Positions 45,471-62,830 of a DNA stretch of 64,000 nt are shown one piece after another. Origin of the DNA: Thermoanaerobaculia bacterium (GTDB taxonomy: Bacteria > Acidobacteriota > Thermoanaerobaculia > Multivoradales > Multivoraceae). How positions within the stretch are numbered: the first letter of the stretch is position 1; each line of letters opens with the position of its first letter. The stretch is taken from NCBI GenBank assembly GCA_965116145.1, contig OZ220482.1:1089450-1153449 (forward strand), read 5' to 3'. The position numbers and the translations under genes were made by a program. The notes beneath the pieces are model-generated. The model saw only the letters and a program-made list of their open reading frames with translations, was not told the DNA's origin and ran no database searches.

Positions 45471-47305
45471 GGTCTGGCCTCCTGACCGGCGCCCGCATCG
45501 GCCTCCGCCCCGGTAGCGGCCGCGGCGGCCGCAGCCTCCTCGCGGTCGCGGGCCCGGGCGCCGGAGAGGATGTTCGTCATTCCGTAGTTGCCCTCGTGGC
45601 AGGCGTACTCGACGAGCTCGTACTGCTCGTTGTCGAGCTCGAACTCGAAGCGGGCCGTCCAGGGACGGGTCCACACGGTCGGATCGTCGACCGTGAACCG
45701 GTACTCCAGCCGATGCGGACCAAGGCGGGTGTAGCGCTCGGTGAGCTTCAGCTTCTCGCCGGCGCCGCGGTAGGCCGCGCGGCCGTTGAAGTTCGTGACC
45801 TCGACGACCAGGGTGTCACCCTCCCAGCGTCCCTGGGAATCGCCCAGCCACTGCCGGATCCCGGCGCCCAGGGGCTCCCGCGGTGCGGTGGGGATGACCC
45901 GGGTCTCGTGGATCATCTCCTTCTGGATGGCGACGAAGCCGGGACTCTGGCTGATCTGCAGGCCGTTGTTGTAGATGGAGGGCATCATCAGTCCCGGCAG
46001 TCCGCGGGTGATGCAGCGGACGTAGGGTGTCAGGTCTTCGGGCCCGGCGGGGCGGCGGCGCACGTAGTCGCCGAACGAAGCGGCGGCGCTGCGCCGACTC
46101 TCCTGCGCCTCTTCGGTCAGGGGCGGCAGGCGGCCGTCCGGCGGATCGACGACCATCGCCACCTGCCGCGACGGCGCCGACTTGACATAGCCGAGGGTCG
46201 TGTCGCGCCACTCGCGCTCGTAGCCCCAGATGCTCCCCAGGGTGCCCCGCTCGCGGCGAGCGGCCGCCTCCTCGGCGGTCAGTTCCTCCCGATCGGCCAG
46301 CTCTTCCGGCCGCTCCAGCGGAATCCCGTGCGCCTTGTTGCCCGACCACATCCCCTGCAGATCGGGAGCGCCCCAGGGAGTCCGCGGCACGACGTACGGC
46401 TCGGCCAGCGCAACGTCCTCCGGGTCCGCCGCTCGGAACCCGTCGTCGACGCCGCGCCAGCCGGATTCGAGCACCGCCACCCGCACGTTGTCCGGGGCGG
46501 CGATGAAGCCGCGGCGGGCCTCGGAACGCCCGCCGTCGGGCCGCGCCGGATCGCGGGTGAAGCGGACGCCCCGGTCACGCAGGCCGACGGCGGCCGTGTC
46601 GAGGTCGGCGAGTTCGAAGGCCAGATGGTCGATCGCCCGGCCGACGCTCGGCGCCGGATCGCCCTCGGGATGCCGCGAAGCAAACAGCCAGACCTCGCCG
46701 AACCGGAGGCCGTCGAGCGTGCCGCGCAGGGTCTCCGGCACGCCGCCGAGGGCCTCGCGGTACCAGCCGAGGGTCCGCTCCGGGTCCCGTGCGCTCAGGT
46801 GGACGTGATGAAAGCCGGGCGTATCCGGGTCTTCGACCAGCTCGATCCGCGTCCCCCAGGGATCGAAGATCCGGCCGACCCGGAACAGGCCGGGCTCCTC
46901 GCGCAGGGTCGAACCGTCGTCGTAGCGCTGCAGACGGACACCGGAGCCACGCACGCCGACCGCCTCCAGCTCGGCCATCTTCTCCTCCAGATCGGGGAAC
47001 GAGAAGCCGATGTGGTCGATGCCCGTGCCCTGGCTTGAACCCATGATCGGGCCCTGGGTGAACTCGATCACCGCGTTGCCGCAGTCGATCGCCTCGGCGC
47101 GCTCCGCGATCGGCTCGCAGTCCAGATGCCGCTCGTACCACTTGACCGCCTCGCTGCGGGCGGACGTGGTCAGTTGCACGGCGAGGCCGCCGTCAGCCCC
47201 GGCCGGGACCGCCGCCGTCAGCGCCAGCAGCAACGCCGCGGGCACGGCCGGGACGCTACGGATCGCCGTCGGTCGGAGGTTCTTCGCGTCGTCGCAGATG
47301 GCCAT
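45467..47305 (-). CDS. secreted fusion protein: tandem VOC (glyoxalase / bleomycin-resistance / extradiol-dioxygenase) domains plus the paralog-family C-terminal domain (paralog 2)
   Basis: Signal peptide after MAICDD. Two VOC-like repeats (GIDHIGFSFPDLEE...WGTRIELVE and AIDHLAFELADLD...). The C-terminus WLGDSQGRWEGDTLVVEVTNFN...YELVEYACHEGNY is homologous to paralogs 1 and 3. Confidence 0.7.
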   Translation of the reverse strand: MAICDDAKNLRPTAIRSVPAVPAALLLALTAAVPAGADGGLAVQLTTSARSEAVKWYERHLDCEPIAERAEAIDCGNAVIEFTQGPIMGSSQGTGIDHIGFSFPDLEEKMAELEAVGVRGSGVRLQRYDDGSTLREEPGLFRVGRIFDPWGTRIELVEDPDTPGFHHVHLSARDPERTLGWYREALGGVPETLRGTLDGLRFGEVWLFASRHPEGDPAPSVGRAIDHLAFELADLDTAAVGLRDRGVRFTRDPARPDGGRSEARRGFIAAPDNVRVAVLESGWRGVDDGFRAADPEDVALAEPYVVPRTPWGAPDLQGMWSGNKAHGIPLERPEELADREELTAEEAAARRERGTLGSIWGYEREWRDTTLGYVKSAPSRQVAMVVDPPDGRLPPLTEEAQESRRSAAASFGDYVRRRPAGPEDLTPYVRCITRGLPGLMMPSIYNNGLQISQSPGFVAIQKEMIHETRVIPTAPREPLGAGIRQWLGDSQGRWEGDTLVVEVTNFNGRAAYRGAGEKLKLTERYTRLGPHRLEYRFTVDDPTVWTRPWTARFEFELDNEQYELVEYACHEGNYGMTNILSGARARDREEAAAAAAATGAEADAGAGQEARP

Positions 47306-48107
47306 AGAGCAGCTCCTCGGAAAACTCGACACACTTGTACTCCAGCACCCGGACGTTCTGCTCCAGGCGCCGGTAGAGCGGCATGCGGATCGTCCAGGCG
47401 CGGGTGAAGACCTTCGGATCCTCGAGCGTCGCCTCGTAGATCATGGTGTTCGGACCGGTCGGCGTGTAACGCTCGACCACGCGCAACGTGTCGCTCGCGA
47501 AGTTGCCGGCACGGTCCAACCAGCCCTGGCCGTTGAAGCCGGCAGCCTCCACGACCAGGGTGTCTCCCTCCCAGCGGCCGTGCGACCGCCCCATCCAGCT
47601 ATCGATCGGCGCCGGCTCCGGATTCTGCTTGTCCATGTGGATCGTCCGGTTCGCCTCGGCGAAACCGTAGACGACCATGATGTGGGTCGTGCCCTGGAGA
47701 ATCCGGAACGGAAACGGCATGTAGGTCGCGCGCGGCACCCCCGGCAGATAGCACTTCGCCTCCGGGTCCTCGCGCCAGCGGTTCTCGAAATTCTGCCGCT
47801 GCTGCTTGCGGGCCCAGTCCTGATAGGGGATCTCGCCGCCGACAACGACGCCCTGGCCGGGCGGCATCGCGGTGAGCGTTCCGTACTCCGAAGGGCCGGC
47901 GGCGGCGGAATGGCCCTCGAGGTTCCAGTGCGCGGTGTTGATCGCCTGCCAGACACCGTTGATGTCCGGGTTGCCGTCGTGGTGCCGGGGGATCGAGTCG
48001 CCGCTCTGCGCCAGGGACGGCGCGGTGAGCGCCAGAGCCAGGAACAGCGCCGTCAGCAACCGTGGCAGCCGCGCCCCATCCAGTACGTCCTGCAATCGCT
48101 TCCTCAT
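47256..48107 (-). CDS. secreted protein, paralog 3 of the same unrecognised family
   Basis: 283 aa with a signal peptide; ...HIMVVYGFAEANRTIHMD...WMGRSHGRWEGDTLVVEAAGFN...VLEYKCVEF. It shares DG.PD..G.W and C...G.P blocks with paralogs 1 and 2. Confidence 0.65.
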   Translation of the reverse strand: MRKRLQDVLDGARLPRLLTALFLALALTAPSLAQSGDSIPRHHDGNPDINGVWQAINTAHWNLEGHSAAAGPSEYGTLTAMPPGQGVVVGGEIPYQDWARKQQRQNFENRWREDPEAKCYLPGVPRATYMPFPFRILQGTTHIMVVYGFAEANRTIHMDKQNPEPAPIDSWMGRSHGRWEGDTLVVEAAGFNGQGWLDRAGNFASDTLRVVERYTPTGPNTMIYEATLEDPKVFTRAWTIRMPLYRRLEQNVRVLEYKCVEFSEELLYGHLRRREEPPTDGDP

Positions 48108-48245
48108 CGCGGAAGGGTGAACATCGTCGGGTGGATGGACAGCATAGCCCAGCCAAGGCCGGCGCTACCTGCCGGATGCAGGTGGGACTGGACACAGGAC
48201 CCGAATCAGACTAGTCTGATCGACCAGACGGTACTGGAGAAGACG

Positions 48246-48491
48246 ATGACGACGATCGGCGCCTACGAAGCCAAGACCCACCTGCCGCGACTCCTCGACC
48301 GCGTCGGCCTCGGTGAATCCCTGACCATCACCCGACACGGGCGGCCGATTGCCCGGCTGACACCCATCGAGAAGGACGACCGGGAACGCGCCGCCGAGGC
48401 GGCCCGGCGCATCGAAGAGCGGCGCCGGCGGCTCGGACAGGCGACCCTGGCCGAGCTGATCGACTCGATCCACGAAGGTCACCGCTATTGA
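48246..48491 (+). CDS. Phd/YefM-family antitoxin
   Basis: This is the last 82 codons of track ORF 47010..48491. MTTIGAYEAKTHLPRLLDRVGLGESLTITRHGRPIARLTPIE is the classic Phd/YefM N-terminus. Confidence 0.8.
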   Translation: MTTIGAYEAKTHLPRLLDRVGLGESLTITRHGRPIARLTPIEKDDRERAAEAARRIEERRRRLGQATLAELIDSIHEGHRY

Positions 48492-50460: not shown

Positions 50461-50738
50461 GTCCATAGCACCTCCGATCCCGACCCTGAGCGTCAGTCGC
50501 GCCGGAGTCGGTCGGAAGCCGCCGCGGACAACAGCGCCCCCTTCGTCGGGGGAACACCGACAGAGCCCGTCGCTGGCTCGTCGGCCCGTCGCTGCCAGTC
50601 TGGCTGACAGGCAGGAGTCGCAGGTCGCAAGACCGACGACTGGCTGTCTGTGCCTGGCTGCCAGTGCGGCCGCCAGCAGTCAGCAACCAGCAGCCAGCAC
50701 TTATCGATTCAGACCGAACTACCCAGGAGTTCTCCTAC

Positions 50739-53114
50739 ATGCTCTCCCTTCAGATCAGGCCTTCACATCTCTCGCCTCCGCTCCGCTACCGAGCGGCCGC
50801 GGGCGCCGTTCTCGCCGTCCTGGCTCTTCTTCTCGTTCCACCGGCAGCCAGCGCCCAGGAAACCGGATCCGTCGTCGGCAACCTCGAAACCGACGGCGAG
50901 AGGATCGTCCTCGCCGTGGCGCGGATTCCCGAGCTGGGCATCAGTACCGCGGTCTCAACGGACGGCGCGTTCCGCTTCGACGAGCTGCCGACCGGCGCCT
51001 GGCTAGTCGTCGTCGACGTTCCAGCCGTCGGCACGGCCCAGGGCACGGTGACGGTCACCGGCGGCGCCGAAGCGGCGATCGATCTGGAGATGCGCCATGG
51101 CATGCACTCGGACGAGATCGTCATCACCGCGACCGGCGACCTGCGCCGCGCCTCGGAGCTGGCGACTCCTGTCACCGTGCTGTCGGCCACGGACCTCCAG
51201 TTGCGCCAGGGCGCCACCTTGGGCGAGACGCTCGAAGGTGAACCCGGCGTGGCGTCAACCGCGTTCGTACCCGGCGTCGGGCGGCCCGTCATCCGCGGTC
51301 TGACCGGCGCCCGGGTGCGGGTGCTGGAAGGCGGTATCGACAGCGGCGACACCTCCGCCGCCAGCCCCGACCACGCGGTGACCTTCGAACCGGCGCACGC
51401 CACGAGAATCGAAGTGCTGCGCGGCCCCGCCACGCTCCGCTACGGCTCGGAGGCCATCGGCGGCGTGGTCAACGTGATCGACGGACGGATTCCCGAAGAA
51501 AGGCCGGTCCGGACAGTCCGCGGCACGATCGACCTGCGCGGCGGCTCGGCCGCTGACGAACAGATGGGTGCGGTCCAGCTCACCGGCGGCAGCGGCGACT
51601 GGGCCTGGCACCTCGGCGCCGTCAGCCGGGAGACCGATCCCTACGACATCCCCGGTTTCGCGCGTGTCGAGGAGGATCACGACGACCATGACGACCATGA
51701 CGATCACGACGACGAAGCGGAGAACTCGTTCGGAGTCGTTCCGAACACCGGGCTGACCAACGAGAGCGGACGGTTCGGCTTCACCCGGTTCTTCGGTGAC
51801 CGCGGTTTCATCGGCGCCTCGGTCAGCGGCTTCGACACGAACTACGGAATTCCTCCTGGCGCTCACACCCACGCGCACGAAGAAGATGGCCACGACGACC
51901 ACGACGACCACGAGGACCATGACGATCACGATGACCACGATGACGTCCCGATCCGCATCGACATGAAGCAGCGCCGCGCGGACCTTCGGGCCGAGGCCCT
52001 GCCAACCGGCGGCGTCTTCCAGCGGATCGCGGTTCAGATGGCGGGGACCGACTACGAGCACGTCGAGCTCGAGGGCACGAGAGCCGGCACGCTGTTCTTC
52101 AACGAGTTCTTCGAGACCCGGGTCGAGATGTTCCAGCGCGAGCGCGACCGCAACCGCGGCTCAGTCGGTCTCCAGTACACCGACCGCAACATCTCCGTGT
52201 TCGGCGAGGAGGCGGTCGTGCCCCCCACGCAGTCCCGGGGATGGGCGCTCTTCACCTCCCAGGAGATAGAGGCCGGCCCCGTCCGCTGGCAGTTCGGTGC
52301 GCGCCTGGAGACGCTCGATCACAACCCGACCGGCTCCGCCAGCGACAGGTCGCGCGACGGCGTGTCCGCTTCCGCCGGCCTGGTCTGGGACACCGACTCC
52401 GTCTGGACGCTCGGCGTGTCGGCAGCCCGCTCGGTCCGCATGCCGAGCGCAGAGGAGCTCTACTCCGACGGCGTGCACGCGGCCACCAGCTACTACGAGA
52501 TCGGCGATCCGAACCTGGGCAACGAGGTCGGGACCGGGGTCGACGTGTCGCTGCGAAGAACGGAAGGCCGCCTGACCGGCGTGCTGACCTTCTTCCGCCA
52601 GAACTTCAGCGACTTCATCTACCAGGCCTTCACCGGCGAAGAGAAGCATGGAGCCTCGGTGTTGCGCTCCAACCAGAGGGACGCGACGATGACCGGCGCC
52701 GAGCTCCGGACCCGGATCGAAGTCGTTGATGTCGGCGGGCATCACATGCACGTGGAGCTGCTGGGAGACACGGTCGACGCGGAGATCGACGCCGGCGGCA
52801 ACCTCCCCCGGACCCCGCCGATGGGCTTCGGCGCCGGACTGCACTACCACGGTCATGACTGGCGGGCCGCCGTCGAGGGACGCTGGATCGACAACCAGAA
52901 CGACGTCGCGGAACTCGAAACCCCGACGGAGGGCTATACGATCGTGAACGCCCACGTCGGCCGACGCGTGATCCTTGGCAACCGGATCCTCGACGTGCTC
53001 CTGCGCGGACGCAACCTGACCGACGAGGAAGCCCGCGTCCACACATCGTTCCTGAAGAACTTCGCTCCGCTGCCAGGACGTGACGTAACGCTCTCGGCCC
53101 GTTTCTGGTTCTGA
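50739..53114 (+). CDS. TonB-dependent receptor, module copy 1, with an N-terminal CarboxypepD_reg-like domain and two acidic His/Asp-rich inserts
   Basis: About 791 aa. Signal peptide, plug, barrel, and a C-terminal aromatic terminus SARFWF. Inserts EEDHDDHDDHDDHDDEAEN and HAHEEDGHDDHDDHEDHDDHDDHDDVPIR. Highly similar to 54280..56841. Confidence 0.9.
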   Translation: MLSLQIRPSHLSPPLRYRAAAGAVLAVLALLLVPPAASAQETGSVVGNLETDGERIVLAVARIPELGISTAVSTDGAFRFDELPTGAWLVVVDVPAVGTAQGTVTVTGGAEAAIDLEMRHGMHSDEIVITATGDLRRASELATPVTVLSATDLQLRQGATLGETLEGEPGVASTAFVPGVGRPVIRGLTGARVRVLEGGIDSGDTSAASPDHAVTFEPAHATRIEVLRGPATLRYGSEAIGGVVNVIDGRIPEERPVRTVRGTIDLRGGSAADEQMGAVQLTGGSGDWAWHLGAVSRETDPYDIPGFARVEEDHDDHDDHDDHDDEAENSFGVVPNTGLTNESGRFGFTRFFGDRGFIGASVSGFDTNYGIPPGAHTHAHEEDGHDDHDDHEDHDDHDDHDDVPIRIDMKQRRADLRAEALPTGGVFQRIAVQMAGTDYEHVELEGTRAGTLFFNEFFETRVEMFQRERDRNRGSVGLQYTDRNISVFGEEAVVPPTQSRGWALFTSQEIEAGPVRWQFGARLETLDHNPTGSASDRSRDGVSASAGLVWDTDSVWTLGVSAARSVRMPSAEELYSDGVHAATSYYEIGDPNLGNEVGTGVDVSLRRTEGRLTGVLTFFRQNFSDFIYQAFTGEEKHGASVLRSNQRDATMTGAELRTRIEVVDVGGHHMHVELLGDTVDAEIDAGGNLPRTPPMGFGAGLHYHGHDWRAAVEGRWIDNQNDVAELETPTEGYTIVNAHVGRRVILGNRILDVLLRGRNLTDEEARVHTSFLKNFAPLPGRDVTLSARFWF
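51669..51716 (+). repeat. coding 9-bp (HDD) repeat tract 1 in TBDR copy 1
   Basis: gat cac gac gac cat gac gac cat gac gat cac gac gac: tandem CAY-GAC-GAY units. Confidence 0.8.
51880..51946 (+). repeat. coding (HDD) repeat tract 2 in TBDR copy 1
   Basis: ggc cac gac gac cac gac gac cac gag gac cat gac gat cac gat gac cac gat gac. Confidence 0.8.
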
Positions 53115-53132: not shown

Positions 53133-53196
53133 AACCCGTTGGGGGTTGGGGCCGAAGAGACCGGAGTCCGTCCGGCCGGCAACCCCCAAACGGGGC
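53133..53196 (+). terminator. long terminator-like hairpin after TBDR copy 1, with stems related to the tRNA-Glu 3' end
   Basis: cccgttgggggttg...ccggccggcaacccccaaacggg: 13-14 bp stems around a roughly 32-nt loop. The same kind of element follows TBDR copy 2. Confidence 0.5.
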
Positions 53197-54029: not shown

Positions 54030-54279
54030 GTCTGCAGGACCTCCGATCCCGGCCCTGAGCGCCAGTCGCACCGGAGCCGGTCGCAGGCCGCCGCGGACAA
54101 CAGCGCCCCTTTGTCGACGCAACACCGACAGAGCCCGTCGCTGCCAGCCTGGCTGACACGCACGAATCGCAGGTCACAAGACCGACGGTTCGTTTCTATG
54201 CGCCTGCTGTCGGCGCGGCTGCCAGCAGCCAGTACCTCCCGCCTTGACTCGGACAGAACTACCCAGGAATTACCTCACC

Positions 54280-56841
54280 ATGCTCTCTCTGCTCTCTCTT
54301 CAGACCATGCCTTCCCGTCCCTTGTCGCCGCTCCGCTGCCGAGCGGCCGCGGGCGCCGTTCTCGCCGCCCTGATCCTTCTCCTCGTGCCACCGGCGACCG
54401 TCGCCCAGGAAACCGGCTCCGTCGTCGGCAAGGTCGAAACTCACGGCGAGAGGATCGTCCTCGCCGTGGCGCGGATTCCCGAACTGGGCATCAGCACCGC
54501 GGTCTCCACGGACGGTGCATTCCGCTTCGACGAGCTGCCGGCCGGCGCCTGGCTCGTCGTCGTCGACATCCCGGCCTTCGGCACGGCCCAGGGCATGGTG
54601 ACGGTCACCGGCGGCGCCGAGGAGGCTATCGACCTGGAGATGCGCCATGGTGTGCACTCGGACGAGATCGTCGTCACCGCAACTGGCGACCTGCGCCGCG
54701 CCTCGGAGCTGGCCAACCCCGTCACCGTCCTGTCGGCCACGGATCTCCAGTTGCGACTGGGCGCCACCCTGGGCGAGACACTCGAAAGCGAACCCGGCGT
54801 GGCGTCGACCGCCTTCGTACCCGGCGCCGCGCGGCCGATCATCCGCGGTCTGACCGGCGCCCGGGTGCGGGTGCTGGAAGGCGGTCTCGACAGCGGCGAC
54901 ACCTCCGCCGCCAGCCCCGACCACGCGGTGACCTTCGAACCGGCGCAAGCCGAGCAGATCGAAGTACTGCGCGGCCCCGCCACGCTCCGCTACGGCTCGG
55001 AGGCCATCGGCGGCGTGGTCAACGTGATCGACGGACGGATTCCCACCGAGAGGCCGGTCCGGGCAGTCGGCGGCACGTTCGACCTGCGCGGCGGCTCGGC
55101 TGCCGACGAACGGATGGGGGCGGTCCAGCTCGACGGCGGCAGCGGCGACTGGGCCTGGCACCTCGGCGCCGTCAGCCGGGAGACCGATCCCTACGACATC
55201 CCCGGCTACGCACGTGTCGAGGAAGATCACGACGACCATGACGACGGCGATGACCATGACGACGGCGACGATCACGACGACGGCGATGACCATGACGATC
55301 ACGATGACCACGAGGATGAAGACCACGACGACGACCATGACCACGAAGCGGAGAACTCCTTCGGAATGGTCCCGAACACCGGATTGACCACCGAGAGCGG
55401 ACGGTTCGGCTTCACCCGGTTCTTCGGCGACCGCGGCTTCATCGGGGTCTCGGTCAGCGGCTTCGACACGGACTACGGACTACCTCCCGGCGCCCACAGT
55501 CACGCGCATGAGGAAGATGATCACGACGACCATGATGGTCACGACGACGGCGACGACCATGACGATCACGACGACGGCGACGATCACGACGACGGCGACG
55601 ATCACGACGATGGCGATGACCATGACGATCATGATGACCACGACGATCACGACGACCACGGAGACGAGGAACTCCCGATCCGCGTCGACATGAAGCAGCG
55701 TCGCGTGGACGTTCGGGCCGAGGCTCTGCCGACCGCCGGCGTCTTCCAGCGGATCAAGGTCCAGATGGCAGGGACCGACTACGAGCACGTCGAGCTCGAG
55801 GGCCCGAGCCCCGGCACGACGTTCTTCAACGAGTTCTTCGAGACCCGGGTCGAGATGTTCCAGCGGGAGCGCGGCCGCAACCGCGGCTCAGTCGGTCTCC
55901 AGTACACCGATCGCGACCTCTCCGCGTTCGGCGAGGAAGCACTCGTGCCTCCCGCGCAGTCCCGGGGATGGGCGGTGTTCACCTCCCAGGAGATCGAGGC
56001 CGGCCCTGTCCGCTGGCAGTTCGGCGCACGCCTGGAGACGCTCGATCACAACCCGACCGGATCCGCCGCCGACAGGTCGCACGACGGCGTATCCGCTTCC
56101 GCCGGCCTGGTCTGGGACGCCGACCCCGCCTGGACGCTCGGCGTGTCGGCAGCCCGCTCGGTCCGCCTGCCGAGCGCTGAAGAGCTCTACTCCGACGGCC
56201 TGCACGTGGCCACCCTGAGTTACGAGATCGGCGATCCGAACCTGAGCAACGAGGTCGGGACCGGGATCGACGTGTCGCTGCGAAGAACGGAAGGCCGCCT
56301 GACCGGCGAGCTGACCTTCTTCCGCCAGAACTTCAGCGACTTCATCTACCAGGCCTTTACCGGCGAAGAGGACCATGGAGCCTCGGTTCTGCGTTTCAGC
56401 CAGAAGGACGCGACGATGACCGGCGCCGAGCTGAGGGCCCGGATCGAGGTCCTGGATGTCGACGACCACCACCTGCACCTGGAGTTCCTCGGCGACACGG
56501 TCGATGCGGACCTTGACGCAGGCGGCAACCTCCCGCGGATCCCGCCGCTGAGCTTCGGCGCCGGAGTCCACTACCACGGTCATCACTGGCGGGCCGCCGT
56601 CGAGGGGCGCTGGATCGACGACCAGAACGACGTCGCGGAAGTCGAAACGCCGACGGAGGGCTACACGATGGTGAACGCCCATGTCGGCCGACGCGTCATC
56701 CTCGGCAACCAGATCCTCGACGTGCTCCTGCGCGGGCGCAACCTGACCGACGAGGAAGCCCGCGTCCACACGTCGTTCCTGAAGAACTTCGCCCCCCTGC
56801 CAGGACGCGACGTCACGCTCTCGGCCCGCTTCTGGTTCTAG
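54280..56841 (+). CDS. TonB-dependent receptor, module copy 2, with greatly expanded His/Asp/Gly tracts
   Basis: About 853 aa; collinear with copy 1. Its inserts are about 40 and 52 residues of (HDD)/(GDD) repeats, against about 13 and 18 in copy 1. Confidence 0.9.
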   Translation: MLSLLSLQTMPSRPLSPLRCRAAAGAVLAALILLLVPPATVAQETGSVVGKVETHGERIVLAVARIPELGISTAVSTDGAFRFDELPAGAWLVVVDIPAFGTAQGMVTVTGGAEEAIDLEMRHGVHSDEIVVTATGDLRRASELANPVTVLSATDLQLRLGATLGETLESEPGVASTAFVPGAARPIIRGLTGARVRVLEGGLDSGDTSAASPDHAVTFEPAQAEQIEVLRGPATLRYGSEAIGGVVNVIDGRIPTERPVRAVGGTFDLRGGSAADERMGAVQLDGGSGDWAWHLGAVSRETDPYDIPGYARVEEDHDDHDDGDDHDDGDDHDDGDDHDDHDDHEDEDHDDDHDHEAENSFGMVPNTGLTTESGRFGFTRFFGDRGFIGVSVSGFDTDYGLPPGAHSHAHEEDDHDDHDGHDDGDDHDDHDDGDDHDDGDDHDDGDDHDDHDDHDDHDDHGDEELPIRVDMKQRRVDVRAEALPTAGVFQRIKVQMAGTDYEHVELEGPSPGTTFFNEFFETRVEMFQRERGRNRGSVGLQYTDRDLSAFGEEALVPPAQSRGWAVFTSQEIEAGPVRWQFGARLETLDHNPTGSAADRSHDGVSASAGLVWDADPAWTLGVSAARSVRLPSAEELYSDGLHVATLSYEIGDPNLSNEVGTGIDVSLRRTEGRLTGELTFFRQNFSDFIYQAFTGEEDHGASVLRFSQKDATMTGAELRARIEVLDVDDHHLHLEFLGDTVDADLDAGGNLPRIPPLSFGAGVHYHGHHWRAAVEGRWIDDQNDVAEVETPTEGYTMVNAHVGRRVILGNQILDVLLRGRNLTDEEARVHTSFLKNFAPLPGRDVTLSARFWF
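55221..55347 (+). repeat. expanded coding (HDD/GDD) repeat tract 1 in TBDR copy 2
   Basis: gat cac gac gac cat gac gac ggc gat gac cat gac gac ggc gac gat cac ... Confidence 0.8.
55511..55671 (+). repeat. expanded coding (HDD/GDD) repeat tract 2 in TBDR copy 2
   Basis: About 52 codons of CAY-GAY-GAY / GGY-GAY-GAY units. Confidence 0.8.
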
Positions 56842-56861
56842 CCAGCCAGCCTGCTTGACCG

Positions 56862-56922
56862 AACCCGTTGGGGGCGCCGAACACACCGGGATCCGCGCCC
56901 GGCCGGCCAACCCCCAACGGAT
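56862..56922 (+). terminator. terminator-like hairpin after TBDR copy 2, containing a tRNA-Glu 3'-end-like sequence
   Basis: cccgttggggg...ccggccggccaacccccaacgg, followed by attcgttacgagcgcaagc, which resembles the tRNA segment ccccaacgggattcgaacccgtgttgcc. Confidence 0.5.
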
Positions 56923-56961
56923 TCGTTACGAGCGCAAGCACCGAGTGCGGAAGCGCGCACG

Positions 56962-57415
56962 CCGACCATCCCGTTGGGGACGACGATCGCGCCCCAAGGC
57001 GCTACACCGGCAGCACGTAACGGATTCGCGCCAAGCGCAACCGCCGAAGGCGGGGCGCGCACGCCGACCATCCCGTCGGGGACGACGATCGCGCCCCAGG
57101 AGGCTACACCGGCAGCACGTAACGGATTCGCGCCAAGCGCACACGCCGAAGGCGGGATGCGCCCGCCGACTATCCCGTTGGGGACGACGATCGCGCCCCA
57201 GGAGGCTACACCGGCAGCACGTAGCGGATTCGCGCCAAGCGCAACCGCCGAAGGCGGGGCGCGCGCACCGACCATCCCGTCGGGGACGACGATCGCGCCC
57301 CAGGAGGCTACACCGGCAGCACGTAACGGATTCGCGCCAAGCGCAACCGCCGAAGGCGGGGCGCGCACGCCGACTATCCCGTTGGGGGCGGCGATCGCGC
57401 CCCAGGGGGCGCGAT
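56962..57415 (+). repeat. tandem array of 102-bp units (4 full copies plus a partial one, over 90 % identical) abutting the 3' end of tRNA-Glu
   Basis: Unit starts at 56962, 57064, 57166, 57268 and 57370; exact period 102. Unit: ccgaccatcccgttggggacgacgatcgcgccccaggaggctacaccggcagcacgtaacggattcgcgccaagcgcaaccgccgaaggcggggcgcgcacg. The last partial unit merges into the tRNA. Each unit carries tRNA-Glu 3'-end-like segments in both orientations. Confidence 0.85.
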
Positions 57416-57492
57416 TGGCGTCCCCAACGGGATTCGAACCCGTGTTGCCAGCTTGAAAGGCTGGAGTCCTGACCTGGCTAGACGATGGGGAC
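57416..57492 (-). tRNA. tRNA-Glu (anticodon TTC)
   Basis: The minus strand reads GTCCCCATCGTCTAGCCAGGTCAGGACTCCAGCCTTTCAAGCTGGCAACACGGGTTCGAATCCCGTTGGGGACGCCA. The cloverleaf is nearly identical to E. coli tRNA-Glu. The anticodon loop is CTTTCAA, and an encoded CCA is present. Confidence 0.9.
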
Positions 57493-57609
57493 GCGGATCG
57501 GGGCGCGCACGCCGCGGCCGACCGCTGTCGAACCGCAGAGTATACCCCCGTCACGGCCTCCGGATCCCGCCTGACAACGAGCCGCCATGCGAGCCGCTAT
57601 CCTCCGCGC

Positions 57610-59082
57610 GTGACCGGCGCGCAGAGACGCACCGTCGGCGGATCGCAGGCAGATCGGCCGGTGCTGATGTGGTTTCGTCGCGACCTCCGGCTGACGGACA
57701 ACCCGGCGCTCGCCTGGGCAGCCCGGACGCAGCGCCCGGTGGTCCCCGTCTTCCTGCTCGACGACGATCAGCCGGGCCGACGGCCGCCGGGCGGAGCCTC
57801 CCGCTGGTGGCTGCACGGCAGTCTCGAAGCGCTGCAGACCTCGCTGGACGGGCTGAGCAGCCGTCTGACGCTGCGCCGCGGCGCCGCCGACACGGTCCTC
57901 GGGCAATTGGTGCACGAGACCGGCGCGGCGGACATCGTCTGGAGTCGGCTCTACGACCCGGACACGATCCAGCGCGACAAGAGCATCAAGGCCCGCTTCG
58001 CCGGCAGCGGAGTGACCGCAAGGTCCTTCAACGCCGGGCTGCTCTTCGAACCCTGGACCGTCCGCAGCGGCAAGGGCGAGCCGTACCGGGTCTTCACGCC
58101 GTTCTGGCGACGCTGCCTGCAGGAAGAACTCGACGCTCCGACCGACAGTCCCCCGGCTGCACTCTCCGCCCCGTCGGCCTGGCCCAGGAGCGACGACCTG
58201 GACGACTGGCGGCTGCGCCCCGGCACACCGGACTGGGCAGCAGGCCTGCGCGCGGCGTGGCGGCCCGGAGAAGCCGGCGCCGGCGACGTGCTCGACACGT
58301 TTCTCGCCACGGGTGTCGACCGCTACAGCAAGGACCGCGACCTGCCCGGCACGACCGGCACCAGCCGCCTGTCTCCCCACCTGCACTTCGGCGAGATCGG
58401 ACCCCGCCAGATCGCGGCGGCCCTCAAGCCGATGGCTGGCCCAGCCGGGCGGGACGCCTTCCTCCGCCAGCTTGGCTGGAGAGAATTCAGCCACCACCTG
58501 CTCTACCACAACCCCGACATGGCCGACACCAACCTGCGAAGCGGCTTCGACGCGATGCCCTGGCGCAGCGACCCCGATGCCCTGCGCCGCTGGCAGCGCG
58601 GCCAGACCGGCTATCCCCTGGTCGACGCCGGAATGAGAGAGCTGTGGACCACCGGCTGGATGCACAACCGCGTGCGCATGGTCACCGCGTCGTTCCTGAC
58701 CAAGCACCTGCTGCTCGACTGGCGCCTCGGCGAGAACTGGTTCCACGACACCCTGGTGGACGCCGACTGGGCCAACAACAGCACCGGCTGGCAATGGGTC
58801 GCCGGCTGCGGCGCCGATGCCGCCCCCTACGTCCGTGTCTTCAACCCCGTCGCCCAGTCGCGCCGGTTCGACCCGGAAGCGCGCTACCTGCGGAAGTGGC
58901 TTCCCGAGCTCGCACACCTGCCGGACGACCTGATCCACGCCCCGTGGCAAGCGTCCGAAGCAGAGCTCGGCAAAGCCGACATCCGCTTGGGCGCCGACTA
59001 CCCGCACCCGATCGTCGACCACGCCGCCGCCCGAGCCAGAGCCCTCGACGCCTGGCGCCGCCACGTGCAGCAGTCCATGTGA
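57610..59082 (+). CDS. phr: deoxyribodipyrimidine photolyase (cryptochrome/photolyase family)
   Basis: 490 aa; GTG at 57610 or ATG at 57667 (MWFRRDLRLTDNPAL). The FAD-binding C-terminal domain has WREF, TGYPLVDAGMREL, TGWMHNRVRM and NSTGWQWVAG motifs. Confidence 0.9.
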   Translation: MTGAQRRTVGGSQADRPVLMWFRRDLRLTDNPALAWAARTQRPVVPVFLLDDDQPGRRPPGGASRWWLHGSLEALQTSLDGLSSRLTLRRGAADTVLGQLVHETGAADIVWSRLYDPDTIQRDKSIKARFAGSGVTARSFNAGLLFEPWTVRSGKGEPYRVFTPFWRRCLQEELDAPTDSPPAALSAPSAWPRSDDLDDWRLRPGTPDWAAGLRAAWRPGEAGAGDVLDTFLATGVDRYSKDRDLPGTTGTSRLSPHLHFGEIGPRQIAAALKPMAGPAGRDAFLRQLGWREFSHHLLYHNPDMADTNLRSGFDAMPWRSDPDALRRWQRGQTGYPLVDAGMRELWTTGWMHNRVRMVTASFLTKHLLLDWRLGENWFHDTLVDADWANNSTGWQWVAGCGADAAPYVRVFNPVAQSRRFDPEARYLRKWLPELAHLPDDLIHAPWQASEAELGKADIRLGADYPHPIVDHAAARARALDAWRRHVQQSM

Positions 59083-59097: not shown

Positions 59098-59231
59098 CGA
59101 GGACGTGCAGACGCCCGCCCCTCCGGCAAGACGCGATGACGGAACACGTCGGCGATGCCCGATCGAAGAGCAGCGCCGCCGGACGGGCTGCCGGCCGCTC
59201 GAACGCAGCGCAACTCTGTCCGCGGACTACC
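59098..59231 (+). repeat. MITE-like repeat, copy G (degenerate)
   Basis: GCAGACGCCCGCCCCTCCGGCAAGACGCGATGA...TCGAAGAGCAGCGCCGCCGGACGGGCTGC...CGAACGCAGCGCAACTCTGTCCGCGGACTAC aligns to the element consensus at reduced identity. Confidence 0.55.
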
Positions 59232-59391
59232 AGGTACGAGGCGAGCAGCCGACAACCGCTGGAGCCTGCCCGGGCCTGCGGCGCAGCATCAGCCTCGCCT
59301 GGAGTCAGGCGACTCCGAGGAGCCTGCCACCACACAGCCGCCGCACACGTGCCGTGCGCACGTCGAGAGCCAAGCCGATAAGATCCCTGCC

Positions 59392-59673
59392 ATGGCCGAA
59401 ATTCGGACAGCCAAGGTGTCCGCCACGGGCCAGGTCGTCATACCCGCCGCCATCCGAACGAAGCTGGGACTCAAGCCCGGCGCCCGGTTCGTCGTCCTCG
59501 GCAAGGGCAACACGATCGTGCTCAGGCCCATCGCGAAGCCCTCGATGCGCGAGTTCACCGAGACCGTCGAACAAGCACGCGAGGCGGCCCGCCGCGCGGG
59601 AGTGAAGAAATCGGACGTTGCCGCGGCAGTTGTCGACGCGCGGCTTGCGGGCGATAGCATCGGAGCCAGCTAA
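59392..59673 (+). CDS. AbrB/MazE/SpoVT-family DNA-binding protein (antitoxin-like)
   Basis: MAEIRTAKVSATGQVVIPAAIRTKLGLKPGARFVVLGKGNTIVLRPI is the swapped-hairpin barrel motif. The track ORF 59155..59673 starts inside repeat G. Confidence 0.7.
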   Translation: MAEIRTAKVSATGQVVIPAAIRTKLGLKPGARFVVLGKGNTIVLRPIAKPSMREFTETVEQAREAARRAGVKKSDVAAAVVDARLAGDSIGAS

Positions 59674-60539: not shown

Positions 60540-60830
60540 ATGAAGAAGCGGCGCCGTTTCACGGCGACATTCAAGTCGAAGGTGGCTCTGGAGGCTCTTC
60601 GTGAGGACCGTCCGCTGTCGGAGATAGCGTCTCGTCACCGTGTGCATCCGAACCAGGTTGGGAACTGGAAGCGCCAGGCGATCGCGGGTCTTGCCGCGAC
60701 GTTCGGGGAGAAGTCGTCTGGTCGCAGTCGGGACACCGAGGAGGAGATACGCGATCTTCACGCGAAGATCGGGGAGTTGACGATCGAGCGGGATTTCTTG
60801 TCGAGGGGCTCGGGCGTTGACCCGGCCGGA
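60540..60830 (+). CDS. IS3-family transposase OrfA (HTH); 3' end approximate, with a frameshift into orfB expected
   Basis: MKKRRRFTATFKSKVALEALREDRPLSEIASRHRVHPNQVGNWKRQ...LHAKIGELTIERDFL. There is no in-frame stop (the track ORF runs to 61883), and no canonical A_AAA_AAG slippery site was found. Confidence 0.7.
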
Positions 60831-61752
60831 GCGCCTTCAGATGGTGAATCGGGAAGGTTCGGAGCTGAGCTTGAGCCGGCGGTGCCGGCTGCTTCAGATC
60901 AGCCGTTCTTCGCTGTACTACCGCCCGCAGGGGGAGAGCGCGGAGACACTGTCGCTGATGCGGGAGATCGACGAGCTGCACACCGCTCATCCGTTCTACG
61001 GTTCCCGTCAGATGGTGCGCCACCTGCGCCGGCAGGGCATCCGTGTCGGTCGTCACCGTGTGCGTCGTCTGATGCGCCTGATGGGGATTGCGGCGATCTA
61101 CCAGTCGCCGCGGACCAGTGCTCCCGGCCCGGAGCACCCTGTGTACCCGTACCTGCTCAGGGAGCTGACGATCGAGCGTCCCGACCAAGTGTGGTGCGCC
61201 GACATCACCTACATCCCGGTGCGGGGCGGCTTCCTGTACCTGGTCGCGGTGATGGACTGGGCGAGCCGTCGGGTGCTGTCCTGGCGTCTGTCGAACAGTC
61301 TCGACGTCTCGTTCTGCATCGAAGCGCTCGACGAGGCGTTCGAGCGCCACGGCAGGCCTGCGATCTTCAACACGGACCGGGGCAGCCAGTTCACCAGCGC
61401 GGAGTTCACGGGCCGTCTGCAGGCGGCCGGCGTTGCGATCTCGATGGACGGTCGGGGCCGGTGCATGGACAACATCTTCATCGAGCGCCTGTGGCGTTCG
61501 CTGAAGTACGAGGCGGTCTACCTCCACGACCTCGCCGACGGGGTCGAGGCGCGGCGGGTCATCGGCGAGTGGATCGCCTACTACAATGCCGACAGGCCGC
61601 ACTCCGCGCTGGATGGCGCAACGCCCTTCAAGGCGCACCAGGCGACCATGGCAAGCAGCGAGAAAATCGACATTCCGCACATTATCCACAGGTTTTCCAC
61701 AGCTCCGGAGGCTACTGCTGCGGATTTCATTCAACCATGGAGTACACCTTAG
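60817..61752 (+). CDS. IS3-family transposase OrfB (DDE / rve integrase core)
   Basis: ...YGSRQMVRHLRRQGIRVGRHRVRRLMR...WCADITYIPVRGGFLYLVAVMDWASRRVLSW...FNTDRGSQFTS...DNIFIERLWRSLKYE: D, D and E residues in canonical spacing. Confidence 0.85.
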   Translation: MTRPERLQMVNREGSELSLSRRCRLLQISRSSLYYRPQGESAETLSLMREIDELHTAHPFYGSRQMVRHLRRQGIRVGRHRVRRLMRLMGIAAIYQSPRTSAPGPEHPVYPYLLRELTIERPDQVWCADITYIPVRGGFLYLVAVMDWASRRVLSWRLSNSLDVSFCIEALDEAFERHGRPAIFNTDRGSQFTSAEFTGRLQAAGVAISMDGRGRCMDNIFIERLWRSLKYEAVYLHDLADGVEARRVIGEWIAYYNADRPHSALDGATPFKAHQATMASSEKIDIPHIIHRFSTAPEATAADFIQPWSTP

Positions 61753-62830
61753 CCCGGACCGAAACTGTCCAACAAACCGGGTCAAGCTCAAGGATGGCCG
61801 AGTACTCGAAGTGGCCGTCTTCGGGGCTGAAGAGGTCGAGCTGGAAGTTCTTGCGGGTCTCGTGGTTGACCTTGCGGCGGTAGAGCACGAAGCGTCGGAC
61901 CCGTCCCCAGACCTCAAGTCGGGCCTCGGCGTAGCTGGTGTGGTGGTCAAGGCGCCTCCACTGGGCCCGGCCCGCGACCTGCTTGAGGTTGAGCCAGGGA
62001 TGGAACGGGGCCTTGATCGCGTACTCGACGCCTGCCCGGTCCAGCACGTCGAGAACGTCCTGGAGGAAGAAGGCCCCGTCCATGCGGAGTTCCAGTGTGC
62101 GGCGCCGCCCCACCGCGGCGCGGACCTGCGCGATCAGCTCGGCAATGAAGCCGACCGCCGCCTTGCCGTCATGGTTGTTGCCGGGCCGGTTCAGGAGCCT
62201 GACGATCTTTCCCTCCTGAGCCTCGTAGCCGGTGATCGGGTAGTAGCTGGGCACCTTGCGCCGGTTCGGGTTGTAGCCCCGGCGCGCGCCCTTGACCTTG
62301 AGTCCCGTGCTGATCACCGAACCGTCGACGTCAAGGGTCAGCCGCCGACCGCCGGAACGCTTCAAGGACCCTTCCACGAGCCCCTCGTTCAGTTTCGCGA
62401 GACGCTCGACATCCCGGCCGGAGAACCGCTGCAGCCAGCCGCTCATCGTCCGCGGCGCCGGCAGTCTCGACAGCCCCGCGAAGCGGGTGACAACGGGGTC
62501 CGACTGCTCGTGGACCAGGTGACTGATGCGACGACCTCCGACCAGGATCAGCGCCAGAAGGGTCAGCAGCATCGACACCACACCGAAGTCGGTCGAACGA
62601 AATCCCGAACCGACCGACCGCCGCAGCCTGGACACGAAGCCGCTCTTGCTCACGTACTCGCCGACGAGCTCGAGACCAGCATGCGACGTGACCTGCTGCA
62701 GGCCTGCTCTGAAGTCCACGATACCGTTGACACGACGCTTCAGTTCTGTTCTTCTTGATCGCACTGGGAGTGGCCTTTCGTCGATGGGTCCCGTGATGGG
62801 TTGAAAACACGAGAATAACCCATCCCGCAA
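61727..62830 (-). pseudogene. IS1380-family transposase, C-terminally truncated by the IS3 insertion
   Basis: GYNPNRRKVPSYYPI and the DDE region are typical of IS1380-family transposases. At 367 aa it is shorter than the usual 430 aa or more. The last 21 codons and the stop lie inside the IS3 right inverted repeat (61727-61790). Confidence 0.65.

Follow-up and report, generated by a model that had tools for sequence, protein, structure and literature searches.

The window analyzed here, a stretch of 64,000 nucleotides on contig OZ220482.1 of a Thermoanaerobaculia bacterium (Acidobacteriota), carries a tRNA-Glu(UUC) gene with an encoded CCA on the minus strand at 57416-57492 (ARAGORN; Rfam RF00005, 63.3 bits) and, directly 3' of it, an array of 102-bp tandem repeats. 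The array fills the whole gap between the tRNA gene and the next, convergent gene, which encodes a TonB-dependent receptor. Tandem Repeats Finder (TRF) places the array at 56916-57410, with 4.8 copies, 90% matches, 0% indels and a score of 792, and it is the sole long-period array that the program reports in the window. A gap-free repeat finder recovers the copies at exact 102-bp steps, with 92-94% identity for the internal copies, 62% for the copy on the receptor side and 78% for the copy on the tRNA side. The four internal units of 102 bp each lie on the minus strand at 56968-57069 (unit 1), 57070-57171 (unit 2), 57172-57273 (unit 3) and 57274-57375 (unit 4). They are bordered by a degenerate terminal unit at 56860-56967 and by a last partial unit at 57376-57415, which passes into the tRNA-Glu gene without a gap. 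An initial annotation, made from the sequence alone, had proposed a 102-bp array beside tRNA-Glu(TTC), and the TRF and ARAGORN results bear this out.

Read along the tRNA (minus) strand, the 3' end of tRNA-Glu (...CGAATCCCGTTGGGGACGCCA) is directly followed by a GC hairpin (AUCGCGCCCC-CU-GGGGCGCGAU), then by a segment complementary to the T-stem and the 3' strand of the acceptor stem (the anti-arm, CGCCGCCCCCAACGGGAU) and by a spacer with a small CCGCC-UUC-GGCGG stem-loop, after which the next unit opens with CGAATCC, the heptamer of the T-loop, and with a tRNA 3'-end copy that has decayed (GTTACGTGCTGCC, the direct arm). This order is repeated four times. Unit 4, for instance, comprises CGAATCC with the decayed 3'-end copy, a remnant of the trailer, the anti-arm CGTCCCCGACGGGAT and the spacer with its CCGCC-UUC-GGCGG hairpin. 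The final unit is degenerate, with CCCCCAACGGGTTCG as anti-arm and, as direct arm, CGAATCCGTTGGGGG, a fuller copy of the 3' end than the CGAATCC(G)TT to which the internal units of the window are reduced. On the plus strand the heptamer reads GGATTCG and is found at 56919, 57022, 57124, 57226, 57328 and, in the real T-loop, at 57430, i.e., in four steps of 102 bp and one of 103 bp, in agreement with the T-arm-like segment that had been noticed in the units. The inverted copy is recognized by the 13-mer CCCGTTGGGGACG, the reverse complement of 57419-57431 inside tRNA-Glu. It is exact in two units (56970 and 57174) and carries one mismatch in three others (57072, 57276 (T>C) and 57378 (A>G)) as well as in the terminal hairpin (56864). 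The earlier statement that each unit contains this tRNA-complementary 13-mer thus holds when one mismatch is allowed, while only two units have it intact. A 26-nt degenerate form of the motif gives six matches in the window versus 0 expected.

Unit copies elsewhere were sought in the 64 kb of the source genome and in 5-10 kb around the locus of each relative. In this sequence, the CCCGTTGGGGACG-type motif is confined to tRNA-Glu and to a copy behind the first of two receptor genes. A generic repeat would have been suggested by the same array at unrelated loci, but the relatives carry it only at tRNA-Glu.

Two strong palindromes delimit the array. The tRNA-proximal partial unit forms, with the tRNA end, a near-perfect palindrome at 57376-57433 (28-nt arms, 2-nt loop, 89% complementary), in which the arm at 57406-57433 consists of the tRNA 3' end and the start of the trailer, and the arm at 57376-57403 of the 3' half of the trailer hairpin and the anti-3'-end segment. 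The consensus of this hairpin persists in five lineages; with the tRNA arm fixed, it can vary on one side only. At the opposite side, the terminal unit holds a long hairpin at 56860-56925 (CGAACCCGTTGGGGG ... CCCCCAACGGATTCG; arms 93% complementary) that begins 19 nt past the stop codon of the convergent receptor gene. This hairpin is likely the shared end of both transcription units and would then act as a terminator for each of them. This anatomy is read directly from the DNA.

Homologous arrays are located directly 3' of the same tRNA-Glu in at least seven other Thermoanaerobaculia genomes or contigs, with periods of 92-103 bp and ~1.3 to 6.4 copies. An exact scan of the unit pattern against the GTDB species genomes, a collection that lacks the source genome, returned 0 matches. 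A scan with the 3' 27-mer of the tRNA returned 120 loci from many phyla, among which the identical 77-nt tRNA occurs only in loci L095 and L107. L107, on the chromosome of 'Ca. Multivorans', has 3.4 copies of 96 bp directly 3' of tRNA-Glu; L095, from a Thermoanaerobaculia metagenome-assembled genome (MAG), has ~1.3 units at the same place. Four further loci (L125-L128) came from metagenomes scanned with the complete tRNA, and tracking of neighbor genes gave L134/L135 and L140-L142. Over all these loci, the tRNA-Glu is identical at 77/77 positions in L095, L107, L125-L128, L140 and L141. Copy numbers differ strongly, from one unit in L134/L135 and in L128 (96 bp, its direct arm being an exact copy of the 3' 21 nt of the tRNA plus trailer) to 3.2 copies of 93 bp in L140, 5.4 copies of 92 bp in L141 and 6.4 copies of 96 bp with 95% identity in L142. 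In L126 the anti-arm comes after a different GC hairpin, and in L125 and L127 the trailers are replaced and no repeat is present. In total, hairpin and anti-arm occur in eight of the ten relative loci with a sequenced trailer (all but L125 and L127), seven of which contain at least one unit. The empty-site comparison that had been envisaged for related tRNA-Glu loci therefore finds mostly occupied sites (7/10).

The origin of the repeat is best preserved in L128, L140, L141 and L142, where the units reproduce the final ~22 nt of the tRNA exactly or nearly so, down to the CCA or a CCA-like terminus. In all genomes, the modules can be aligned collinearly with the tRNA 3' end plus trailer. Derivation of the units from the tRNA-Glu 3' end, as initially proposed, is thereby shown directly. 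Copy-number variation is equally direct: L140 and L141, which stem from one sample, have flanks that are 96-98% identical and arrays that differ by ~220 bp (~2 units). The gene on the far side is a receptor gene in the window, a short-chain dehydrogenase/reductase (SDR) gene in L095, L107 and L140-L142, and other genes in L128 and L134. Since the neighbors vary and the linkage to the tRNA is constant, the array travels with the tRNA. Units are homogeneous within each genome and diverged between genomes, which indicates concerted evolution. The presence of homologous arrays in independent assemblies, including complete chromosomes, also means that the array is genuine and not an assembly artefact. 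The best explanation of this distribution is that the array belongs to the tRNA-Glu locus of a Thermoanaerobaculia clade and is neither cargo nor scar of an integrating element.

We favor, with a probability of roughly 60%, the explanation that the array is a tRNA-Glu-linked minisatellite that originated when the tRNA 3' end and its trailer were duplicated in tandem, is kept by unequal recombination and is probably transcribed as a 3' spacer in which GC hairpins define RNA ends. In this scheme, the last ~25 nt of tRNA-Glu (T-loop to CCA) and ~75 nt of the 3' trailer would have been duplicated head to tail, the trailer part comprising the GC hairpin, the segment able to pair with the tRNA 3' end, and the spacer with its small GC stem-loop. 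The copies would subsequently expand, contract and homogenize by unequal recombination or replication slippage. The array would be transcribed as a 3' external spacer of the tRNA-Glu precursor, in which the 28-bp hairpin at the tRNA and the terminal hairpin may mark or block 3' ends. By analogy with the RtT RNA of the Escherichia coli tyrT operon, the resulting repeat RNAs would be by-products.

Upstream of the tRNA, the 5' leader (57493-57544, minus strand) contains a -10-like TATACT (57539-57544; AGTATA on the plus strand), a conserved CGACAGCGGTCGGC and the 16-mer CGGCGTGCGCGCCCCG at 57499-57514. The block TATACT-N6-8-C-T/G-CGACAGCGGTCGGC upstream of tRNA-Glu is kept in L095, L107, L128, L134 and L140-L142, and this conservation suggests that it is likely a promoter -10 element plus leader; a scan of the leader for a consensus sigma-70 promoter gave no match. 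The leader 16-mer also occurs in the units (CGGGGCGCGCACGCCG; 57051, 57255 and 57357; p ~ 0.0005 versus shuffles), possibly because of conversion between leader and unit or because the original duplication was larger. The similarity is not significant in L107, L141 and L142 and is thus limited to the lineage of the window. For this reason, a unit made of the whole tRNA gene with an internal deletion, which an alignment and the shared 16-mer had suggested, was dropped and the general unit was kept as T-arm/3' end plus trailer.

A number of points weigh against the minisatellite with a transcribed spacer. Co-transcription with the tRNA, the roles of the hairpins and the recombination mechanism are all steps that we infer. 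Neither a canonical promoter nor a U-tract terminator is detected: 56500-57900 contains 0 U-tract terminator-like sites, as the hairpins have no T run and do not classify as intrinsic terminators. The internal units have no fold that is both conserved and better than that of shuffled sequences. Folding of the unit in both orientations, which had been suggested with a structured RNA in mind, gave a signal for a single internal unit of the window on the tRNA strand (z = -2.6) and none for the other strand (z = 0.3) or for the units of L107 (z around 0). The commonest variant of the spacer has two mismatches in its stem. In addition, persistence of the array across lineages whose units have diverged to ~35% identity outside the arms exceeds what might be expected of a purely neutral minisatellite and may reflect a selected role that has yet to be named. 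Finally, the search for copies elsewhere was limited to the 64 kb and the 5-10 kb per locus given above.

Among the competing explanations, the most credible, although in our judgment unlikely, situates any function at the DNA level only. Transcription of the tRNA would stop at the first 28-bp hairpin and the array would be an untranscribed neutral minisatellite, a palindromic barrier or insulator between convergent genes, or a set of protein-binding sites. The first palindrome is indeed very strong: the predicted fold of pre-tRNA plus trailer locks the tRNA 3' end in the long hairpin, with z = -4.3 in the window and -7.8 in L095. When the tRNA 3' end is paired with the 100 nt that follow the gene and the duplexes are compared over 121 tRNA-Glu loci, the four clade members with enough downstream sequence for the ranking take ranks 1-4, at -31 to -41 kcal/mol versus a mean of -18 (sd 5). 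The array always fills the gap to the convergent gene, which suits this explanation, as does the absence of a significant conserved fold in the internal units. Moreover, the long hairpin has about equal numbers of G.U-type and A.C-type mismatches (6 vs 4) and hence no strand preference. The spacer stem-loop behaves differently. Its cells are paired in 74% of cases compared to 30-46% in slid controls, and six pairs have changed on both sides, for a test structure derived from one of the sequences. Read on the tRNA strand, the stem-loop has 15 G.U versus 0 A.C cells, an asymmetry that favors an RNA read in the direction of the tRNA. Another indirect hint of co-transcription is that no promoter-like site was detected within the array. 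No U-tract follows the first hairpin at which transcription would have to stop, and the repeats of the E. coli precedent are transcribed.

If the array is transcribed, its products might be more than by-products. One version, which we hold to be improbable, assumes a functional anti-tRNA array: RNAs of ~100 nt from the 3' spacer, each with a 15-28-nt complement of the pre-tRNA-Glu 3' end and trailer, would regulate folding, processing or stability of the precursor in cis or in trans. Between the internal units of the window and those of L107, the anti-arm and a GGCGCGA block are 74-77% identical, versus 22-35% for the direct arm and the rest; taken singly, the anti-arm stands at 77% and the direct arm at 22%. 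Internal anti-arms match the 3' end of the real tRNA over 15 uninterrupted base pairs, and A/G variation at one anti-arm position preserves U-A or U.G pairing. Selection on the anti-arm looked convincing for the window, L107, L095 and L134, but is undercut by L140-L142: L140 and L141 have an intact direct arm beside a decayed anti-arm, and L142 has kept the two arms whole, so the asymmetry does not hold generally. Gene conversion that starts from the tRNA-proximal copy accounts for the state of the arms as well as selection does. Pairing of the predicted RNA with a folded tRNA would furthermore have to open the acceptor and T stems. A more specific variant, which seems to us more doubtful still, is a selected, clade-specific RNA device whose redundant antisense copies would hold the precursor in an extended duplex or titrate 3' fragments, and would so adjust the maturation or supply of tRNA-Glu. 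tRNA-Glu serves both translation and tetrapyrrole synthesis. If true, this would be an antisense regulator made out of the very tRNA that it targets and encoded behind it.

The initial annotation had instead proposed that serial integration and excision at the tRNA-Glu 3' end left a stack of att cores, with the receptor genes possibly as accreted island cargo. This model is largely refuted and we consider it very improbable. It does account for units that derive from a tRNA 3' end, for the exact direct 3'-end copies in relatives and for the variable neighborhoods of tRNA-Glu (an IntI-like integrase in L125, toxin-antitoxin and restriction-modification modules nearby in relatives and, in the window, a transposase at 3 kb). 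Nonetheless, a Pfam scan of the flanking open reading frames (ORFs) yielded no integrase or tyrosine recombinase but receptor, photolyase, MazE-like and transposase helix-turn-helix (HTH) domains, and tblastn of the IntI-like protein of L125 against the whole window gave only hits with E > 1. The units are contiguous, equal in length and 92-94% identical including the intervening sequence, which fits amplification of one unit, and relatives have the array at the tRNA next to different neighbors. Two unit patterns had 0 matches in viral contigs. The pattern expected for att remnants is instead seen in other phyla, in L027 (+160, +589 and +913 after tRNA-Glu) and L086 (+167 and +356), which have irregular direct partial copies (16/18 nt) of the tRNA-Glu 3' end and no tandem repeat. 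As for the cargo, the genes upstream of the receptors (glyoxalase, a ~280-aa ORF and enoyl-CoA hydratase) are kept in synteny in relatives that have tRNA-Glu elsewhere, and the GC content of the receptor genes equals the background; the receptor genes are therefore read as syntenic core. A tRNA-derived repeat beside a tRNA is thus not automatically an integration scar.

The tRNA-Glu does serve as an insertion point in some relatives, judging by L125 (Ga0209956_1000063, minus strand). There, an integron-integrase-like tyrosine recombinase is found 693 nt downstream of the identical tRNA-Glu (locus ~99-1130) and the trailer is replaced by AT-richer DNA with GTCTAAC, an attC/attI-like core.

Membership in another known class (an integron attC cluster (CALIN), REP/BIME elements or a repetitive protein-coding gene) is the most remote of the options, since its appeal (imperfect palindromes of attC-like size, GTTGGGG / CCCCAAC resembling attC core sites with 6/7 matches each to GTTRRRY / RYYYAAC, unit lengths of 102 and 96 bp that are multiples of three, long ORFs across the array and public gene calls over the L140-L142 arrays) is offset by the change of the attC AAC/GTT triplet to AGC in the anti-arms of L095, L107, L128, L134 and L142 (CCCCAGC), by the absence of copies away from tRNA-Glu in the sequence available, and by array ORFs that have no Pfam match, overlap the tRNA, are thrown out of frame by units of 97, 98 and 103 bp and, as peptides, are conserved across species no further than the nucleotide similarity accounts for. 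The public calls (L140 3147-3821, L141 3175-4041 and L142 3266-4042; 224-288 aa without a Pfam match, that of L142 overlapping the tRNA) are probably spurious ORFs, and the same probably applies to other hypothetical proteins called over such arrays in public assemblies. A CRISPR array is ruled out, as had been concluded at the outset, because the units are contiguous and repeat as a whole, with no unique spacers. A retroelement primer-binding site (18 nt complementary to a tRNA 3' end) was also considered and rejected, as the units of the window carry a mismatch in the complement of the terminal CCA and, by reading of the sequence, no reverse transcriptase lies nearby. Rfam searches at gathering and permissive thresholds produced only tRNA matches; matches of eukaryotic miRNA models to the hairpin were discarded as artefacts of the palindrome.

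On the far side of the array, the two TonB-dependent receptor genes (50664-53114 and 54244-56841) are tandem paralogs that are 81% identical and ~1.1 kb apart. Hairpins with CCCGTTGGGGG...CCCCCAACGG follow both genes, as the initial annotation had observed. The one behind the first gene (53133-53196) is not an independent tRNA-derived copy: in an alignment of the 3' flanks, homology spans the hairpin and then stops, which indicates that duplication of the receptor gene's 3' end carried the terminal-unit hairpin along. Both genes contain in-frame tandem repeats (periods 9/18/33/45; 51679-51944, 55229-55346 and 55519-55660) that encode His/Asp runs (HDDHDD...), and the paralogs differ by length changes of 27 and 32 residues exactly at these repeats. 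The runs look like expandable metal-binding loops. L136 likewise has two tandem receptor genes, with a 128-aa ORF between them; in the same locus, ARAGORN reports a 100-nt 'tRNA-Tyr' (2577-2676) inside a sulfatase coding region, which is probably a false positive.

Further from the array, the C-terminal ~80 aa of a long mechanical ORF at 47010-48491 match a PhdYeFM antitoxin domain, and a small antitoxin gene is probably located near 48250-48491. In L001, L134 and L142, toxin-antitoxin genes are likewise found beside the tRNA-Glu or receptor region. On the 5' side of the tRNA lies a photolyase gene, and none of its closest relatives (74-79% identity) has tRNA-Glu beside it. Beyond it, between 59000 and 64000, GC content falls from ~0.70 to 0.55-0.65 and a MazE/AbrB-like ORF (59155-59673) and an ORF with a transposase-type HTH (60540-61883) are found; this segment may be mobile or recently acquired.

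Several known systems share part of this architecture. Bacterial variable-number tandem repeat (VNTR) and MIRU minisatellites are intergenic, have units of ~100 bp and vary in copy number between close strains, and MIRU-type repeats are dispersed over many loci. The Glu array resembles them in unit size, intergenic position and variable copy number (L140 versus L141), but is anchored to one tRNA gene and built from its sequence. By virtue of the same variability, its copy number might be used to tell strains of this uncultured lineage apart. Remnants of att sites, like the array, are partial tRNA 3'-end copies downstream of an intact gene. They are, however, direct copies separated by unrelated DNA of variable length and usually accompanied by an integrase, while the Glu units are contiguous and uniform and no integrase was found in the flanking ORFs. 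The 3' external transcribed spacer (3'ETS) of E. coli leuZ acts as a sponge for small RNAs (sRNAs). Similarly, the array could give rise to a tRNA-trailer-derived RNA that acts by base pairing; the leuZ spacer is single-copy and targets sRNAs, whereas the predicted product of the Glu array would be repeated and complementary to the 3' end of its own tRNA.

To our knowledge, tandem repeats from the 3' end of a tRNA gene itself are known chiefly from the E. coli tyrT locus (RtT RNA), and this is the closest parallel. The tyrT repeats of E. coli contain a rho-dependent termination site. Re-derived on NC_000913.3, the tyrT/tyrV repeat has 3.14 copies of 178 bp with 95% identity and abuts tRNA-Tyr; each unit ends in the last 19 nt of tRNA-Tyr (AATCCTTCCCCCACCACCA), and the annotation comprises rttR (small RNA) / tpr. 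The rtT RNA originates from the repeat unit of the tyrT operon (PMC3318445; bioRxiv 10.1101/2024.07.17.603846), and according to both papers its mode of action is unknown; its function is likewise still unclear (bioRxiv 10.1101/2024.07.17.603846). In both systems, a tRNA gene is joined at its 3' end, without a gap, by a tandem repeat. The E. coli units carry the 3'-terminal ~20 nt of their tRNA, and the Glu units of L128 and L140-L142 likewise carry the 3' ~22 nt, including the CCA or a CCA-like end. RtT belongs to tRNA-Tyr of Enterobacteriaceae with a unit of 178 bp, in contrast to tRNA-Glu of Acidobacteriota with a unit of 92-103 bp. Each Glu unit adds an inverted copy of the tRNA 3' end, which leads to the 28-bp palindrome with the real tRNA, and the direct 3'-end copy is decayed to CGAATCCGTT in the window. 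The Glu array has no Tpr-like ORF and no sequence or structure match to the Rfam RtT model (RF00391), which gave four matches of 133-137 bits in the E. coli control and none at E <= 10 in 56500-57800 of the window or at E <= 1 in the L142 array. The Glu array is thus no member of the Rfam RtT family but is an RtT-type locus in its layout. The independent occurrence of a like architecture in Acidobacteriota, at a different tRNA, implies that it is recurrent rather than an enterobacterial oddity. Being conserved in its clade and variable in copy number, the Glu array offers a second system in which a neutral by-product of palindromic trailers can be weighed against a role in tRNA 3'-end formation.

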